From: a virus
Lineage: Duplodnaviria; Heunggongvirae; Uroviricota; Caudoviricetes
Length of the DNA stretch: 42,469 nucleotides
IMG/VR virus record: IMGVR_UViG_2541047705_000011
Strand: one strand, 5' to 3'
Positions 6,670 through 37,138 of this stretch are shown piece after piece (positions within the stretch are counted from its first letter, which is position 1; each line of letters begins with the position of its first letter). The translations under genes and the position numbers were made by a program. Below the pieces are notes generated by a model, which saw only the letters and a list, made by a program, of their open reading frames with translations, made no database searches and had not been told where the DNA came from.

Positions 6670-6689
6670 TACTGTATAAATATACAGTT
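6670..6689. promoter_or_regulatory. LexA box (SOS operator)
   Basis: TACTGTATAAATATACAGTT, 18/20 to consensus TACTGTATATATATACAGTA (CTGT-N8-ACAG); 20 nt upstream of the 6709 start; possible -35 TTGATA overlaps. Confidence 0.75.
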
Positions 6690-6708: not shown

Positions 6709-6966
6709 ATGCAGCAGTATCACTATCCACTGGAAGACGGATTTACCGAAAGGATTCACACGCCGGGAGGCGTCAGGTCACTGGTGGAGGGATCGCACTT
6801 GATGAAATTACTCCGGGATCTCGATAAGGATGGATTTAATGTCGATGGCCCACTTGCCGAACTGACTGCACTGATTAACTACGTCACCAGCTCACAGATG
6901 TCTATGCAGGATCTGCAAACACATCTCGACTATTGTGCCGAACAATTACGAAAACAAACCCGGTAA
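6709..6966 (+). CDS. Small antirepressor-like protein (homologous to C-terminal domain of the BRO antirepressor at 8113-8805)
   Basis: 85 aa from ATG 6709 (track ORF starts at TTG 6691); RBS GGAGAAG; aligns with the last ~60 aa of the BRO protein. Confidence 0.6.
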   Translation: MQQYHYPLEDGFTERIHTPGGVRSLVEGSHLMKLLRDLDKDGFNVDGPLAELTALINYVTSSQMSMQDLQTHLDYCAEQLRKQTR

Positions 6967-6972
6967 ATTTAA

Positions 6973-6990
6973 AGGCCGCAAGAGCGGCCT
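6973..6990 (-). terminator. Hairpin terminator between convergent genes
   Basis: AGGCCGC-AAGA-GCGGCCT; T-rich on minus strand downstream; overlaps the 6989-7717 stop codon. Confidence 0.45.
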
Positions 6991-7717
6991 ATCGTTTCGC
7001 TTTGTGCTCGTCCCAGCACGTTTTGCACCATGCCATTAAGCCGTCCGCATTTTGATTATTAGGGTAAAAGCTGGTCCGTTTTCTGCGGACATTACAAATT
7101 GGGCACCACTTCATATGGCGTGTATTCTTTGGACCATCGAGACACCTTGCACACCACTTAGTCAATCCATCTGGATTTTTTGACGATTTCCGGAATTTGT
7201 CATATGGAAGGTTTATTCTGCATCGCAAACACTGCTTGCGGCCACTTGAAACTCTGTTAGCTGATTCTTCTTTTGGCGGCGATACAGAAGGTATTCTTGC
7301 TGGCTCTGATACTGCCTGAGGTGCTTTTTTAGATGACTGAGACGATATGTCATCACCAGGGAATCTTCCATGATATGCCGGACGCGTTGACACTCCAGGT
7401 GGAAGCTCAGCTGTAAACGGCTTTGGCTGAATCAGTTGCCTCTCTTTTGCTAACTCCTGCTGTTTATAATATGTCTGGATTACCGCACTATCATAAGCAG
7501 GAGGTACGGAAATATCAGGCGCGTTACCTCCAGTTTTTTGAAACTGAGTAGATGTGTGTTCTATCACCTGTGTACGACTAATCGTTACCTCCCCATCTTC
7601 GGTCTTTATCGTTTTGTTCTGATTAACGACCGTACGATCAGAGATCTTAGTCTTGTTCTGGTTGATAACGTAAATAATCACCGCAACCACACCAACAACT
7701 ATCCAGAAAACTTCCAT
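6989..7717 (-). CDS. Membrane-anchored protein with two C-terminal zinc-ribbon repeats, unknown function
   Basis: N-terminal TM helix, Pro/Ser-rich linker, then CLRC..x22..WCARC and CPIC..x21..WCKTC; RBS GAGGAAAAG. Confidence 0.6.
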   Translation of the reverse strand: MEVFWIVVGVVAVIIYVINQNKTKISDRTVVNQNKTIKTEDGEVTISRTQVIEHTSTQFQKTGGNAPDISVPPAYDSAVIQTYYKQQELAKERQLIQPKPFTAELPPGVSTRPAYHGRFPGDDISSQSSKKAPQAVSEPARIPSVSPPKEESANRVSSGRKQCLRCRINLPYDKFRKSSKNPDGLTKWCARCLDGPKNTRHMKWCPICNVRRKRTSFYPNNQNADGLMAWCKTCWDEHKAKR

Positions 7718-7736
7718 TGCTTTTCCTCACAATAAC

Positions 7737-7753
7737 ATTACCTTAAAGGTAAT
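7737..7753. promoter_or_regulatory. Operator-like palindrome ATTACC-TTAAA-GGTAAT (perfect)
   Basis: 20 nt upstream of the 7717 start codon; possible -35 TTGATC 17 nt from TACCTT on minus strand. Confidence 0.6.
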
Positions 7754-7785
7754 ATCTTGCTTTCAGGTGATCAAGCGTTAAACGC

Positions 7786-7807
7786 AATCAACCAAATACG
7801 GTTGATT
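7786..7807. promoter_or_regulatory. Second-type palindrome AATCAACC-N6-GGTTGATT
   Basis: Perfect 8-bp inverted repeats with 6-bp spacer, between two ATTACC/GGTAAT sites. Confidence 0.4.
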
Positions 7808-7829
7808 TTAATATTTCTTCGCGTTTATC

Positions 7830-7846
7830 ATTACCTTTGCGGTAAA
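7830..7846. promoter_or_regulatory. Operator-like palindrome ATTACC-TTTGC-GGTAAA (11/12 arms)
   Basis: Same motif family; upstream of structured leader and BRO gene. Confidence 0.5.
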
Positions 7847-7864
7847 TTTACATCGCACTCCTCT

Positions 7865-7958
7865 TGTGCCATAGTAATCGGGCACTGGCAAAATCCAGTG
7901 CCGGGATTGGTCTCCCGGATTACTACAGAGGCACATATGCCGCATAAGCGGTTTTTTT
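7865..7958 (+). other. Candidate structured RNA/leader: three-way junction fold followed by short hairpin and T7 run
   Basis: Nested complementarity TGTGCC/GGCACA, GTAATC/GATTAC, GGCACTGG/CCAGTGCC, GGGA/TCCC; then CCGC-ATAA-GCGG plus TTTTTTT; about 155 nt upstream of BRO start. Confidence 0.3.
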
Positions 7959-8112
7959 ATGTGTAAAGCGCACCTATTCTATGGTGGGCTGTGTGGGGGC
8001 ACCGAAAGGTGCGCCGGGTTCCTTTGTAGCCGGTAAGACCAACTCTGCACAGTTCACCACCATCTGATTGGTCTCAGCGGTGGTGATTAACCTAACTACA
8101 AAGGTGATCGCT

Positions 8113-8805
8113 ATGAATACCAAACCTTCCATCTTTTCCTTTGAGTCATCCTGCCAGATCCGTATGTTCATGATTGACGGAGAACCTTGGTTTGTCACCA
8201 AAGATGTGTGCAATGCTTTGAATATTGATGTTACACAAGCGAGAAAACTTGATAAAAAAGGCTGGAACAAAAAGGGGCTGTATTCAATACAGACCCCTGG
8301 TGGAATACAAGAACTATCCATCGTTTCAGAATCAGGTCTCTACATCCTTATTCTGCGTTGCAAAGAGGCAATGACTGAGGGAACGAGAGCATTCAGATTT
8401 CTTGAATGGGTTACAGGTGAGGTTCTTCCTCAGATCCGCCGCACCGGAAGTTACATTAAAAACTCGCTCCCGCAGGAAGAACGCATAAAGATGGTTGCCG
8501 ACCAGGTAGCCAACGCCACGGCGTCAGCAGTAATGCAGGCGATGAAGATAGAGAACAAAACCTACAGTGCCCCACTGAAGCCCGGCTACCGTAGCCTGAT
8601 TCATTCGCCGTCTGGTGTTCTCGGCCTGACGGAGAACTCACTGCTGATGAATCTGCTGAACCAGTTACAGGACGACGGGCACGACGTATCGGGCGCGGCG
8701 GCGGAGCTGACCACCATGTTCTGCTACATCGTCGGTGTGAGCAAATGCCTGCGTGATATCCAGACCCACGCGGAGTACATCAACGACAAGGCAGGGTTCT
8801 TCTGA
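8113..8805 (+). CDS. BRO-N domain antirepressor
   Basis: BRO-N motif FSFESSCQIRMFMIDGEPWFVTKDVCNAL; RBS AAGGTGA; start trimmed to ATG 8113; C-terminal domain homologous to the 6709-6966 protein. Confidence 0.75.
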   Translation: MNTKPSIFSFESSCQIRMFMIDGEPWFVTKDVCNALNIDVTQARKLDKKGWNKKGLYSIQTPGGIQELSIVSESGLYILILRCKEAMTEGTRAFRFLEWVTGEVLPQIRRTGSYIKNSLPQEERIKMVADQVANATASAVMQAMKIENKTYSAPLKPGYRSLIHSPSGVLGLTENSLLMNLLNQLQDDGHDVSGAAAELTTMFCYIVGVSKCLRDIQTHAEYINDKAGFF

Positions 8806-10375: not shown

Positions 10376-10651
10376 GTGGCTTCTGTTTCTATCAGCTGTC
10401 CCTCCTGTTCAGCTACTGACGGGGTGGTGCGTAACGGCAAAAGCACCGCCGGACATCAGCGCTATCTCTGCTCTCACTGCCGTAAAACATGGCAACTGCA
10501 GTTCACTTACACCGCTTCTCAACCCGGTACGCACCAGAAAATCATTGATATGGCCATGAATGGCGTTGGATGCCGGGCAACCGCCCGCATTATGGGCGTT
10601 GGCCTCAACACGATTTTACGTCACTTAAAAAACTCAGGCCGCAGTCGGTAA
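10376..10651 (+). CDS. insA: IS1 InsA
   Basis: Sequence recognised as IS1 InsA ([32 protein letters not shown]...). Confidence 0.95.
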
Positions 10652-11073
10652 CCTCGCGCATACAGCCGGGCAGTGACGTCATCGTCTGCGCGGAAATGGA
10701 CGAACAGTGGGGCTATGTCGGGGCTAAATCGCGCCAGCGCTGGCTGTTTTACGCGTATGACAGTCTCCGGAAGACGGTTGTTGCGCACGTATTCGGTGAA
10801 CGCACTATGGCGACGCTGGGGCGTCTTATGAGCCTGCTGTCACCCTTTGACGTGGTGATATGGATGACGGATGGCTGGCCGCTGTATGAATCCCGCCTGA
10901 AGGGAAAGCTGCACGTAATCAGCAAGCGATATACGCAGCGAATTGAGCGGCATAACCTGAATCTGAGGCAGCACCTGGCACGGCTGGGACGGAAGTCGCT
11001 GTCGTTCTCAAAATCGGTGGAGCTGCATGACAAAGTCATCGGGCATTATCTGAACATAAAACACTATCAATAA
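10570..11073 (+). CDS. insB: IS1 InsB reading frame (expressed as InsAB' fusion by -1 frameshift)
   Basis: Sequence recognised as IS1 InsB; slippery TTAAAAAACTC upstream in the InsA frame. Confidence 0.9.
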
Positions 11074-19053: not shown

Positions 19054-21524
19054 CAGAATCCCCCAACAGTAAGGCGAGGAATAACGGCAAGAACAGACAG
19101 CGGCAACGGGTCAAGCTGACGGATTTTTACACGTCCGTTTTTGCCCCAGTTACTGTCCAGTTTCACTTCTACTTTTCCGGTAGCATCATCAACAGGATCA
19201 TCGTAGAACTCGAATTCACGCTGTGGATATTCGTACCATTTACCGCCGGGCGTAGTCGCCCAGATGCCGCGACTGGCATTCACAACCAGAGTAACGGACG
19301 GGATCACCTGTTTTTTGTCCAGCAGCGTTTCCTGTCCGTTAATGTTGATATCCAGTGTTTCGAATTCAGCAGTTATTGGCAGGCCGATGTGCACTACAGC
19401 CCCCGGTGATTCCAGCGTGACGGCACCTCCGGAAACCACTTTCTGTGGTTCCACGTTCGCATCAGAGAGGATGTTTACGGTCTGGCCTTCAAGATGAGAC
19501 AAGCCGCCAAATGTCCGGCGCGCCATCTGCCAGTTCGTGGTGGCCACATTCCTGAGGGATGGCGGGACGTTCCTGTTAGCACGAACCACTACAGCGGTAT
19601 TGCTGGTTACAGAAATAATGTCGCAACGTAATTCTTTTGACACCTCATCGCCAGTATCAGGATCAGTTCCGGTATAAGGGAACTGTAGTTGCGCGCCGAC
19701 ATCACTACTGGTGAAGTACGCACCACCAGAAACACTGATTGTATATTCCGCGCGGTAATCCCATTCGCCAGAACCACCAGTGATGGTCATCGTTCTGTCA
19801 GACGTATTTCTTCCATCATAGCTAAGGCCAGAATCAACAAAGAAAGCATCTTCATCGCTGGTAAATAAACGGCTGGACAGTCGCTCGATGTATCTCACTG
19901 TTTGCCCGTTAACGGTTCGGTTAATGACGAAATACACCGCATCTTCATTGCCTTCGCTGATACTGCATGTGCTTTCATATTTTCCGGTACTGGACTGTGG
20001 TGCCCATGCAAAAACCTGTTGATCACGCAAATAGGTCATCACCAGTAATTTACCGTCATCACGAATGCAGAAGGCGCTGGAGTAAGGGACTATCGAGAAG
20101 CACCAGTCAACAATGCTGTGCTTCTGAAAAAGATGATTGGCAAGGATGGTCAGGTCGTTCCCCTGATAGCCGTCAACATCGAATGAGTAGGCCAGATCAC
20201 GGACAACGCTGCCTTTCTCCTGGACGAACAGAGCAATATTCGCCACGGCAATTGGCGGGACGTTGCTTGAGCCATTTGATCCCTGAGAGCTGAATGCAAA
20301 TGATGATGGGGTTAACACTTTGTTCTGGTCGCCGGTGATGACGTACTCACCTCCGGAAGTCAGCGCCACCAGAGAACCAACATCAATCAGGTGGCGGATC
20401 TCATTAACCTGACGTCCGGCATAGGTGTAGATAATTCTGTCGTCATCCTGCGTAGGATTGCTTTTGCCAAAATCCTTATAATCCCCGGTACGGCTGGCCC
20501 AGATAGTCTGAGGAAACGCAGTCGATGCGGCGAAGTAAAGACGTTGTTGATAATAAACAACAGTGCCAGGATAACCATTAACACTGTTCCAGGCATATTT
20601 AGCCCATTTATAGCTGGCATTATCCTCGCCCACGACCTGCGAAGGGATATAGGAAATCACCTCGGCAGTTGCAGTAGTTCCATTTGCAGCAGTGATACGG
20701 GCAATGCCAAAACCACTGTGCAGATATTCCCACTCAATGCCAGTATCATCATCACCGGATCCGCCCCAGCCATCCCATGATGTGCCTTCTGTATGCGAAG
20801 GGCGCAAAGTACCTGTTTTGCCTGCTGTAACGGCGCGATAGTAGTTACTGTCTGCACGGCGAATATCGCCAATCGACGTACTCTTACTGGTTTCCCATAC
20901 CGGCACAGAATCCACTGCAGGCTGTTCCAGATAGAACAATTTGCCTACCTGCTCCGCGCCAAAAATAGAGGCGCTTGCCGTTAGCGTAATTGTCCCGGTG
21001 CTGGCGCTGGCATAAACCGTCACTGACTCGTCAATATTGATATCTTCAAATGGCCCGTTCTTCGTTACCACATCAACCAGTTGCCAGTTGTCATGCGCAT
21101 AGCGGCGCAACTCTTTCGGCGGGTATGCCGGATGAACCAGCGTAAGCACGTCTGCGCTTTGCGTGAATTTAATTCGGAACAGATCGGCTTCAGTATATGG
21201 CGTGGCAATTTCATAAATAACATTGCTGCTGTTCAGCACCAACGCACCATCTTTGATAACGCGCATGTACTGGTGTCCAAACTCCAGAGCATAAGTCTGA
21301 ACCGTCGAGAACTGGAACGGGATCAGGCGGCATTTCCGATTTGGGTATTTGGCGGCACCGACAAAACGCGTACCAGGTCGATTCTCAACGCCGCCATACT
21401 GCCGCACGATAAAGTTATCGCACTTGCGCAATGCCACCTGGTACTTAGCCATGTCAATACGCCCGTACAACGACGGTCCAATCTCACCACCGGCAAAGCT
21501 GGGCTGGATCCAACTGATAGCCAT
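19053..21524 (-). CDS. Tail tubular protein B-like (nozzle)
   Basis: 823 aa directly downstream of tubular-A-like gene; size and position match podovirus tail-tube protein B. Confidence 0.55.
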   Translation of the reverse strand: MAISWIQPSFAGGEIGPSLYGRIDMAKYQVALRKCDNFIVRQYGGVENRPGTRFVGAAKYPNRKCRLIPFQFSTVQTYALEFGHQYMRVIKDGALVLNSSNVIYEIATPYTEADLFRIKFTQSADVLTLVHPAYPPKELRRYAHDNWQLVDVVTKNGPFEDINIDESVTVYASASTGTITLTASASIFGAEQVGKLFYLEQPAVDSVPVWETSKSTSIGDIRRADSNYYRAVTAGKTGTLRPSHTEGTSWDGWGGSGDDDTGIEWEYLHSGFGIARITAANGTTATAEVISYIPSQVVGEDNASYKWAKYAWNSVNGYPGTVVYYQQRLYFAASTAFPQTIWASRTGDYKDFGKSNPTQDDDRIIYTYAGRQVNEIRHLIDVGSLVALTSGGEYVITGDQNKVLTPSSFAFSSQGSNGSSNVPPIAVANIALFVQEKGSVVRDLAYSFDVDGYQGNDLTILANHLFQKHSIVDWCFSIVPYSSAFCIRDDGKLLVMTYLRDQQVFAWAPQSSTGKYESTCSISEGNEDAVYFVINRTVNGQTVRYIERLSSRLFTSDEDAFFVDSGLSYDGRNTSDRTMTITGGSGEWDYRAEYTISVSGGAYFTSSDVGAQLQFPYTGTDPDTGDEVSKELRCDIISVTSNTAVVVRANRNVPPSLRNVATTNWQMARRTFGGLSHLEGQTVNILSDANVEPQKVVSGGAVTLESPGAVVHIGLPITAEFETLDININGQETLLDKKQVIPSVTLVVNASRGIWATTPGGKWYEYPQREFEFYDDPVDDATGKVEVKLDSNWGKNGRVKIRQLDPLPLSVLAVIPRLTVGGF

Positions 21525-27657: not shown

Positions 27658-27734
27658 GTGGCATTAGCTCAGTCGGACAGAGCAACCGCCTTCTAAGCGG
27701 TTGGTCGCAGGTTCGAATCCTGCATGCCACGCCA
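27658..27734 (+). tRNA. Phage-encoded tRNA-Arg (anticodon UCU)
   Basis: 77-nt cloverleaf: acceptor GTGGCAT/ATGCCAC, D-stem GCTC/GAGC, anticodon stem ACCGC/GCGGT with loop CTTCTAA, T-arm GCAGG-TTCGAAT-CCTGC, discriminator G, encoded CCA. Confidence 0.9.
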
Positions 27735-36018: not shown

Positions 36019-36097
36019 GGTAAGCCCTGTTATTAGTATTGGGATTACGGTCATTTTGTGCTGACACAAAAAAAAGATCAACCAGATTTGGTTTTTT

Positions 36098-36114
36098 ATT
36101 ACCTTTGAGGTGCG
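36098..36114. promoter_or_regulatory. Degenerate operator-like site ATTACC-TTTGA-GGTGCG
   Basis: Perfect left arm, 3/6 right arm; just downstream of the Cro-side terminator. Confidence 0.3.
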
Positions 36115-36168: not shown

Positions 36169-36399
36169 TCATGAGTAGAAGAAGTATGCCAGTTCTGCTT
36201 TTGAGCGCAACCATTGTCTTGATTTACAGGCTTTAAAAAGCCCATTCATCAATACCTTACCTGGCATTTTGCGCTTACCTGTTAAGTGAGTCTGGATATA
36301 GTGACTCGTCGTTCCGGCTTCCTGTGCGAAGGCTTCACGCTCATCCGGAGTGAGTGCAAGCCAGTGCTTTTTGAAATCGAAATGTCCGTTATCGCTCAT
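36169..36399 (-). CDS. Cro-like HTH regulator
   Basis: 76 aa; HTH FAQEAGTTSHYIQTHLTG; divergent from CI-like gene, points toward O/P. Confidence 0.65.
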   Translation of the reverse strand: MSDNGHFDFKKHWLALTPDEREAFAQEAGTTSHYIQTHLTGKRKMPGKVLMNGLFKACKSRQWLRSKAELAYFFYS

Positions 36400-36553: not shown

Positions 36554-37138
36554 ATGAAAAGTATCCAGGACGTCCGCAGGCAAAATCTCAACGACTTGAT
36601 CGACCGTGAATTCAATGGTGTTCAGACGCGGATGGCAGAAAAACTTGGAACTCAGGCAAATCTGGTAAACCGCTGGGCTCTTGGCAAGAAGGTTATCGGC
36701 GACCAGGTTGCGCGAAAAATTGAAGCTGCCGCCAATAAACCCCGTAACTGGCTTGATATCGATCGCTCGCTTTCTCAGGAAGGTTTTCAGCCTGTCGGCC
36801 CAAGCGACATTGGTCAGCTGGCGGCTCACAACCTGGAACGCTGGATGAGCGAAAGCCGCGACCTTTCAACACAGGGAAAACTTCACCGCGCATCCGGCGT
36901 CGCCCAGGTGACAATCAGCCGCCTGTTAAACAATGAGGTCAGCGTTTCCATTTCCACCCTGGAGAATGTTGCATCCGCATTCGGGCGTCACGGATATGAA
37001 CTACTGATTCACCCGCACGACCCTGCGACTATCAACTATGACCGCTCGCGCTACGCATTGTTACCCGAAACCGAGAAAGCAAAGATCGAAAGTTACATTG
37101 AATTTGTCATCAACCAGAACGAAAAAAACAAACAATAA
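36554..37138 (+). CDS. CI-like repressor with two HTH domains and no recognisable S24 peptidase domain
   Basis: 194 aa; HTH segments TRMAEKLGTQANLVNRW and LHRASGVAQVTISRLLN; no Ser-Lys autocleavage module seen; weak SD. Confidence 0.65.
   Translation: MKSIQDVRRQNLNDLIDREFNGVQTRMAEKLGTQANLVNRWALGKKVIGDQVARKIEAAANKPRNWLDIDRSLSQEGFQPVGPSDIGQLAAHNLERWMSESRDLSTQGKLHRASGVAQVTISRLLNNEVSVSISTLENVASAFGRHGYELLIHPHDPATINYDRSRYALLPETEKAKIESYIEFVINQNEKNKQ

Follow-up and report, generated by a model that had tools for sequence, protein, structure and literature searches.

An IsrK/C4-type RNA module and a palindromic promoter element upstream of a BRO-N antirepressor gene in a phiV10-like prophage of Escherichia coli

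In the viral record IMGVR_UViG_2541047705_000011 (42,469 nucleotides; 'the window', meaning the whole stretch of DNA analysed), positions 7786-7958 lie upstream of ant, a gene for a BRO-N antirepressor, and combine a perfect palindrome with a segment that can be folded as RNA and ends in a run of T residues. Is this a single RNA element governing ant, or are different elements placed side by side? The answer is twofold. The RNA part belongs to the IsrK family and is followed by its partner, a C4 antisense RNA; the palindrome is a promoter/operator element in the DNA. The probability of the whole reading, namely an IsrK/C4 RNA switch acting on ant together with a palindrome that serves as promoter/operator DNA, is put at roughly 0.78. 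Such a module would decide whether the antirepressor is made, and hence whether a common E. coli prophage wakes. Recognising it also guards against mistaking the region for a novel riboswitch or attenuator, and against annotating open reading frames (ORFs) across RNA genes.

The IsrK and C4 RNAs in the ant leader

The plus strand matches the Rfam family isrK over the full length of the model (positions 1-77 of 77), with 74.7 bits against a cutoff of 50 (E = 2.5e-14; coordinates of this and all other features are collected in Table 1). In isolation, this RNA is predicted to fold into three separate hairpins. The last is the short hairpin followed by seven T residues that the initial annotation had picked out; the small regulatory RNA or attenuator that it proposed for the antirepressor gene thus takes the shape of a full-length IsrK member in the BRO-N gene leader, ending in an intrinsic terminator. 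A pattern scan of viral contigs yielded 120 loci, and 96 unique sequences were aligned for family tests. Hairpin 1 is 97.9% paired in these homologues, with compensatory changes at six of its seven pairs; the corresponding figure for hairpin 2, which hardly varies, is 96.9%. In silico, the best sigma-70 match of 105 among 106 unique homologues has a −10 box that stops exactly 6 nt short of hairpin 1. The terminator can be enclosed by an outer helix, whose two arms covary (own pairs −8.1 kcal/mol, cross pairs −5.9 kcal/mol; p = 1e-16). Covariation across the family argues for a conserved structure of the read-through RNA that is under selection. By analogy, IsrK may here also bind Hfq, allow partial read-through of its terminator and activate the antirepressor in trans, as is known from Gifsy-1 (PMC4825925).

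The key partner lies just beyond the segment first described and had been missed. Directly downstream, 20 bases past isrK, the Rfam family C4 is matched over its full length (model positions 1-87 of 87; 78.6 bits, cutoff 45). The monomer fold (−43.6 kcal/mol) is the family structure, with a long closing stem and two hairpins. The 3′ end of this C4, ...CACCACCA, we take to resemble an RCCA tail; in P1 and P7, C4 is reportedly released from its precursor by RNase P (Hartmann et al. 1995).

C4 and IsrK are connected with the ribosome-binding site (RBS) of ant by two sets of short sites, here named a and b as in the P1 GenBank record. The b′ loop of C4 is a perfect complement of b2 (9/9 bp, −12.6 kcal/mol), and the duplex covers AAAGG, 8 nt before the ATG of ant; a′ pairs with a2 over 7/7 bp. 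Both targets are present again in IsrK. The a1 region (7905-7914) has exactly the sequence of the a2 region, and a single base separates the b1 region (7922-7931) from the b2 region, with G-U pairing to b′ kept. Site-level duplexes in the window range from −12.5 to −15.0 kcal/mol. Although the a1 heptamer falls into different classes (TTGGCGT, TTGGTCT, TTGGAAC and others), it has an exact complement in its own C4 in 100 of 105 modules, as against 0.4% in a control with the heptamer of another class. An identical a2 is found in 98 of the 105, and where a2 is present it always matches its own a′. The same holds for the b sites at the level of duplex energy: b1 with b′ gives −13.7 kcal/mol for own and −8.6 kcal/mol for cross pairs, and b2 with b′ −16.0 versus −11.3 kcal/mol. 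In 88 of 94 modules, a2 lies 43-50 nt from the ATG. The conserved triplication of the a/b targets suggests that what the family shares is target mimicry, with IsrK set against C4. The read-through RNA (7882-8130) has a minimum-energy fold in which the a1/b1 region pairs with the a′/b′ region in cis.

A 28-codon ORF (7981-8067, plus strand) starts at the AUG in the 5′ part of C4 and stops 45 nt before the ATG of ant; it is probably not a conserved gene. Its product gives a weak match to Pfam Phage_ASH (22.5 bits, below the cutoff of 26). An 'Ash family protein' is annotated at the C4 position in ZX5 and in Hafnia phage yong2, and RefSeq has a hypothetical protein called across isrK/C4 in E. coli A287. 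Such Ash and hypothetical protein calls may in part be translations of an RNA gene.

The window as a whole represents a Uetakevirus prophage of E. coli, of the phiV10/epsilon15-like kind. Positions 7700-8130 are identical (100%) to a region of E. coli strain PAR (NZ_CP012379) and 88% identical to phage TL-2011b; rightward from about 7821, identities of 83-99% are seen to phiV10, ZX5, EC.W1-9 and other Uetakevirus-type phages. Stx phages and APSE are among the 225 phage records with more distant matches to 7700-8130. The module is matched in 482 of 5426 complete E. coli genomes (about 9%). In a scan of one genome per species, 49 of 120 matches are genuine modules with both hairpin 1 and a′; the remainder, in line with the roughly 70 hits that a 17-base pattern should give by chance in 596 Gb, were discarded. 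The genuine modules are from Enterobacterales, Pseudomonas, Xanthomonas, Vibrio, Aeromonas and others. Two seemingly genuine isrK/C4 modules (L135 and L206) are on contigs labelled Parabacteroides goldsteinii and Solirubrobacteraceae, far outside Proteobacteria; mis-binning or contamination is a possible source of these labels. In the phiV10 record, the only annotation at the isrK locus is 'terminator', and the ZX5 paper mentions neither RNA nor operators (PMC9782041).

Table 1. Features of the ant control region and associated immunity functions. A dot marks features without strand.
Feature	Position	Strand	Basis and remarks
O1, operator-type site ATTACCTTAAAGGTAAT	7737-7753	.	perfect 8-1-8 palindrome; just upstream of the RBS of the divergent 242-amino-acid gene
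Palindrome AATCAACC-N6-GGTTGATT	7786-7807	.	perfect; core AACCAAATACGGTT at 7790-7803 ('S' motif)
P-up, upstream promoter-like site TTGATT-18-TATCAT	7802-7831	+	−10 ends on first base of O2
O2, operator-type site ATTACCTTTGCGGTAAA	7830-7846	.	core TTACCTTTGCGGTAA at 7831-7845; between the two promoters, abuts −35 of IsrK promoter
IsrK promoter TTTACA-17-CATAGT with TG extension	7847-7875	+	promoter scan; predicted start ~7882
IsrK-family small RNA	7882-7958	+	Rfam RF01394, full length; fold
Hairpin 1	7882-7901	+	part of IsrK
Hairpin 2	7902-7917	+	part of IsrK; a1 in loop
a1, TTGGTCT	7907-7913	+	loop of IsrK hairpin 2
b1, CTACAGAGG	7923-7931	+	single-stranded in IsrK
Outer helix CACAU/AUGUG	7932-7936 with 7959-7963	+	around terminator; only possible in read-through RNA
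Mini-ORF MPHKRFFYV	7937-7966	+	spans terminator; Shine-Dalgarno-like AGAGG in b1
Terminator hairpin	7939-7952	+	5-bp GC-rich stem, then U7/T7 at 7952-7958
C4 antisense RNA	7977-8064	+	Rfam RF01695, full length
b′, CCUUUGUAG	8021-8029	+	C4 hairpin loop
a′, AGACCAA	8036-8042	+	single-stranded C4 junction
a2, TTGGTCT	8068-8074	+	ant leader; within GATTGGTCTC (8066-8075)
b2, CTACAAAGG	8096-8104	+	over ant Shine-Dalgarno; within ACTACAAAGG (8095-8104)
ant, BRO-N antirepressor gene (regulated output)	8113-8805	+	Pfam Bro-N, 51.4 bits, cutoff 25.6, E = 1.8e-13
TTACC-N5-GGTAA sites	6618, 7738, 7831, 8877, 27321, 30511, 30529, 34091, 34153, 36436, 36484, 37196, 37258		motif scan
Prophage repressor, two helix-turn-helix domains	36554-37138	+	Pfam HTH_3 and YdaS-type helix-turn-helix; 194 amino acids

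Operator-type sites, the repressor and the palindrome

The motif TTACC-N5-GGTAA (consensus aTTACC-N5-GGTAAt) occurs 13 times in the window, where 0.82 sites are expected, a 16-fold excess; phiV10 has 14 sites (0.63 expected), at equivalent places. Pairs of sites flank the repressor gene on both sides (36436/36484 and 37196/37258), and single sites precede accessory genes. The position of O2 (−57) does not vary among 32 related modules; in most of the remaining family members, a near-consensus promoter, TTGAC(A/G)-17-TATATT, is present without a site of the O2 type. The repressor, with a YdaS-like region at residues 21-61 and an HTH_3 region at residues 106-147, is 100% identical to phiV10 p40 and to ORF21 of ZX5; the ZX5 repressor blocks lytic growth (PMC9782041). 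Given the excess of the motif, the pairs around the repressor gene and the fixed position of O2, TTACC-N5-GGTAA is most likely the operator of the p40-type repressor. A literature search on operators of the genus Uetakevirus found no description. No peptidase (RecA-cleavable) domain was detected in the repressor with Pfam, which fits induction via antirepressors rather than by self-cleavage. For the BRO-N antirepressor of ZX5 (ORF4), overexpression lowers lysogeny (PMC9782041).

The palindrome is found exactly as initially described, between two operator-like sites, here O1 and O2. It is no part of the RNA but a promoter/operator element in the DNA, of which only the core is conserved, and which recurs beside operators. 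A single perfect palindrome with 8-bp arms is not remarkable in itself; the window contains 21, as against 8 ± 3.4 in Markov simulations. The context is significant, with three of them within 7737-7902. Relatives keep only the core AACC-N6-GGTT, at a constant distance from O2. The right arm of the palindrome forms the −35 box of P-up, which scores at least 9/12 in 25 of 32 operator-bearing relatives and is the positional counterpart of promoter P2c4 (P51a) of P1.

The core motif, S (AACCAWATNNGGTT), has four sites in the window (6578, 7790, 27269 and 36080), corresponding to six strand-matches where 0.51 are expected. In phiV10, exact AACC-N6-GGTT occurs at 20539, 24736 and 33132 (0.53 expected). 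When the window, phiV10 and the viral loci are taken together, 45 of 62 S sites in unique contexts are at most 60 bp from an operator-type site, and sequence that close to an operator amounts to 1.8%; the spacing is 40.5-41.5 bp for 41 S sites. The core is most likely a protein-binding site that acts with an operator about 41 bp, or four helical turns, away. To our knowledge, and judged by eye, the palindrome is unlike the consensus sites of LexA, CRP, FNR and IHF. At 36076-36113 (minus strand), a second copy of the core, AACCAAATCTGGTTGATC, follows an operator-like site, GCACCTCAAAGGTAA, at 20 bp; it is situated just downstream of the terminator that follows a Cro-like gene (p41 homologue, 36169-36399, minus strand), and upstream of the replication genes, and the arrangement is kept in phiV10 (L249, 33112-33145).

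The proposed switch and its alternatives

In the scheme proposed here, the transcription starts, the leakiness of the terminator, the direction of regulation in this phage and the protein assigned to each DNA site are predictions; family membership, synteny, covariation and the motif statistics are observed. Transcription would start at about 7882, from the promoter whose −35 box abuts O2. Most transcripts would stop at the hairpin and U7 run, giving an IsrK of about 77 nt, and the remainder would continue as read-through RNA through C4 into ant. Pairing of C4 with the ant leader (b′ with b2, a′ with a2) would occlude the Shine-Dalgarno sequence and block translation of ant, as in P1 and P7. 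The a1 and b1 sites of IsrK would compete for C4, either in cis within the read-through RNA or in trans from the short RNA, and so relieve the block. The predicted cis fold of the read-through RNA resembles 'structure A' of Gifsy-1.

Several points speak against this scheme. Start sites, termination efficiency and C4 processing in this prophage are deduced from its sequence. The Rfam family c4-a1b1 (RF03163) reaches only 39.9 bits at 7869-7921 (E = 1.4e-8), below its cutoff of 46.7. Cofolding of whole molecules is predicted to bring hardly any net gain (IsrK and C4, −1.8 kcal/mol; C4 and the ant leader, 0.0), so that pairing would need to start by loop-loop contacts, which are outside the model. 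The antirepressor itself is not homologous to AnrP of Gifsy-1 (E = 3.5) and not clearly related to Ant1 of P1 (BLASTP E = 0.015). The exact activation route of Gifsy-1 may not be transferable, as it needs orf45 and anrP to be coupled in translation, which is not found here. As to the palindrome, the conservation of its right arm is explicable by the −35 role alone, and in phiV10-type genomes a coding sequence ends within its left arm; moreover, many of the 45 S/operator pairs are homologous copies of two loci, which leaves few independent cases.

The RNA could be read differently. A three-way junction, as initially suggested, does form in silico: it is the minimum-energy fold of 7838-7958 (−48.9 kcal/mol, z = −4.6), with the stems GUGCC/GGCAC and UAGUAAUC/GAUUACUA and two enclosed hairpins. 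Read-through into ant might then be set by a self-contained attenuator without any trans-acting RNA, either through competition between junction and terminator or through translation of the mini-ORF, which spans the terminator and has a plausible Shine-Dalgarno sequence; a weak covariation signal in the flanks (own duplexes −7.4, cross −5.7 kcal/mol) would agree with this. Comparison of the homologues makes it highly improbable. Hairpins 1 and 2 are kept, as described above, but the closing stem of the junction is only 47% paired in the 96 homologues, and its 5′ arm (7866-7879) is promoter DNA. With the RNA starting at about 7882, this arm coincides with the −10 box of its promoter and is probably outside the main transcript; the junction would require a transcript begun at a promoter further upstream, and the family as a whole does not share it. 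Exact complementarity over 7 nt or more for the junction stem exists in just 14 of 108 modules, and at another place, the promoter spacer. Leader-peptide attenuation by the mini-ORF was likewise rejected, with an ATG between hairpin 2 and the U-run in 35 of 106 modules. The adjacent C4 and the covarying a/b sites explain the conservation unaided. These sites also bear on the idea that IsrK is mainly an Hfq-dependent, trans-acting RNA directed at host mRNAs (a 'moron'), for which its position upstream of ant would be secondary. Rfam does describe the isrK family as 'Hfq binding', and Salmonella lysogens express IsrK at a high level in every condition tested (PMC7067206); however, the only conserved single-stranded segments, a1 and b1, covary with C4 and the ant RBS over about 100 modules, and the literature examined gives no host target for any family member, which makes this idea very unlikely.

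For the palindrome, two other explanations have to be weighed against a role as protein-binding DNA. It could work as a hairpin, namely as a weak intrinsic terminator or an insulator against upstream transcription; a terminator scan flags it (8-bp stem, T-rich tail), and an extended hairpin at 7779-7827 has −15.1 kcal/mol (z = −4.5). This, too, has little probability. The outer arms change on the left side only (in TL-2011b and in the relatives L042, L105 and L124), uncompensated, which indicates that hairpin pairing is not maintained. In copies of the phiV10 type a T-run is missing and a stop codon overlaps the site; at other promoters, this core is found again at fixed spacing from operators; and the nearest upstream gene is encoded on the other strand. 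Less easily set aside, though still rather unlikely, is that the symmetry is incidental and the site no more than the −35 box of P-up with an A-rich upstream region, with no dedicated binding protein. Most relatives do have TTGATT, TTGAAA or TTTGCA as right arm at the correct spacing to the −10 box, and about eight palindromes of this kind per window are expected by chance. Yet the left half, AACC, is kept in four different upstream sequence contexts, and the full 14-bp motif is found at other operator-linked sites, including the perfect palindrome AACCATATATGGTT in phiV10.

The neighbourhood of the IsrK/C4 switch and its promoter/operator DNA has features of its own. No Pfam match was found for the ORFs at 7757-7966 (plus strand), 7808-7945 (minus) and 7974-8321 (minus). 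The divergent gene beside O1 (6989-7717, minus strand, ATG at 7717) encodes 242 amino acids and sits between a p24-like gene and the isrK module, a place where phiV10 does not have it. Its product has a Cys-rich C-terminus, a weak match to Stc1 and an N-terminus that, read by eye, we take to be hydrophobic; a promoter scan found no sigma-70 promoter for it within 7718-7880. The p24-like gene is an 85-amino-acid ORF (6709-6966), homologous to phiV10 p24 and epsilon15 gp19. Its product and the C-terminal domain of the BRO-N antirepressor (residues 149-222) share 42% identity (E = 1e-15). A perfect SOS (LexA) box, ACTGTATAAATATACAGT (6671-6688), lies just upstream, an S motif (6578) and an operator-type site (6618) also precede the ORF, and it looks like a small, SOS-controlled antirepressor paralogue. 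The prophage also contains a tRNA gene (27658-27731, plus strand; Rfam tRNA, 73.3 bits), which an S motif (27269) and an operator-type site (27321) precede by a few hundred bases. The translation of the ORF at 10376-10651 looks like InsA of IS1, which would suggest an IS1 insertion at 10376-11073 (plus strand), about 1.5 kb downstream of ant.

A wider conjecture, which is possible but doubtful, is that S and TTACC-N5-GGTAA are the two halves of an undescribed bipartite operator in phiV10/epsilon15-like phages. It would be read either by the two helix-turn-helix domains of p40 or by the repressor and a second regulator, and would wire both antirepressor genes, the RNA-gated BRO-N gene and the SOS-box-controlled paralogue, into immunity; in addition, the a/b classes could form an RNA 'immunity code' for cross-induction. 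If so, these classes would decide which co-resident prophages cross-induce via IsrK.

Comparison with known systems

A close counterpart in gene order is the isrK-orf45/STnc1160-anrP locus of Salmonella Gifsy-1 (PMC4825925), which has the same order and spacing as the window and can be aligned along the whole module. Its own promoter, IsrK, a C4-type RNA, the targets at the RBS and an antirepressor gene are all shared, and its IsrK likewise has two 5′ hairpins, a single-stranded copy of the target and a leaky terminator. The Rfam families isrK, C4 (in the STnc1160 region) and c4-a1b1 (48.1 bits) all match it. Some isrK transcripts of Gifsy-1 run on past the terminator and give an mRNA that stays untranslated; short IsrK, acting in trans, makes this mRNA translatable and so induces the prophage (PMC4825925). 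There, orf45 has 45 codons and a stop that overlaps the ATG of anrP, whereas the 28-codon ORF of the window, its counterpart by position, ends 45 nt upstream of ant; coupling of the orf45 type can thus be rejected for the window. An overlapping stop of this type is present in 7 of 94 family members, and its rarity indicates that the coupling is not general. In addition, the promoter of Gifsy-1 is of the consensus type and has no TTACC-N5-GGTAA operator, unlike that of the window, and an Rfam scan of the window finds neither antQ upstream nor isrJ downstream.

The immI region of P1 and P7, compared here on the basis of the P1 GenBank annotation, shares the architecture of the control region. 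In P1, the C1 operator Oc4 (Op51) lies over the −35 box of P2c4 (P51a), with P1c4 (P51b) 40 bp downstream, followed by a1, b1, C4, a2, b2, icd and ant1/2. As is predicted for the window, an operator of the primary repressor is placed at tandem promoters, and the proximal promoter starts its transcript at hairpin 1; shared, too, are the positions of a1 in the loop of hairpin 2, of b′ in a loop and a′ in the junction of C4, and of b2 on the RBS of the first ORF. P1 is matched by C4 (68.8 bits) and c4-a1b1 (51 bits), and its leader gives a sub-threshold 35.1 bits on the isrK model; the latter match suggests that IsrK is the a1/b1 leader of the immI design with a terminator added. C1 at its operator and C4 RNA jointly shut off ant in P1 (PMC8198154). 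Differences are that P1 has icd between b2 and ant, whereas the window has no icd and b2 lies on the ant RBS itself, and that the P1 operator overlaps the −35 box of the distal promoter, whereas that of the window lies between the promoters and AACC-N6-GGTT takes the position of the P1 operator. P1 is also a plasmid prophage, and the window a podovirus (Uetakevirus).

The APSE phages of Hamiltonella, although of another genus and with another host, have the same arrangement of isrK, C4 and BRO-N gene, with about 70% DNA identity over the module. Their records annotate isrK and c4 upstream of the BRO-N gene, with antisense regions matched upstream of BRO (PMC7313666); the a′ and b′ sites of C4 are labelled in the opposite order from the P1 record. 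By description, satellite P4 is similar in that a small processed RNA, CI, has copies of its target upstream and downstream (seqA and seqC), and SeqA has been termed a structural homologue of IsrK (Hershko-Shalev et al., PMC4825925). P4 CI, again by description, causes premature termination of transcription of replication genes, rather than a translation block of an antirepressor.

The isrK/C4 module is thus of a known kind, with its Rfam families and the precedents of P1, Gifsy-1 and APSE, and is represented here by an uncharacterised member from Uetakevirus. The absence of orf45 and icd coupling and the pairing of S with the operator motif are variant features; of these, the pairing of the two motifs in Uetakeviruses may be the sole element that is new.

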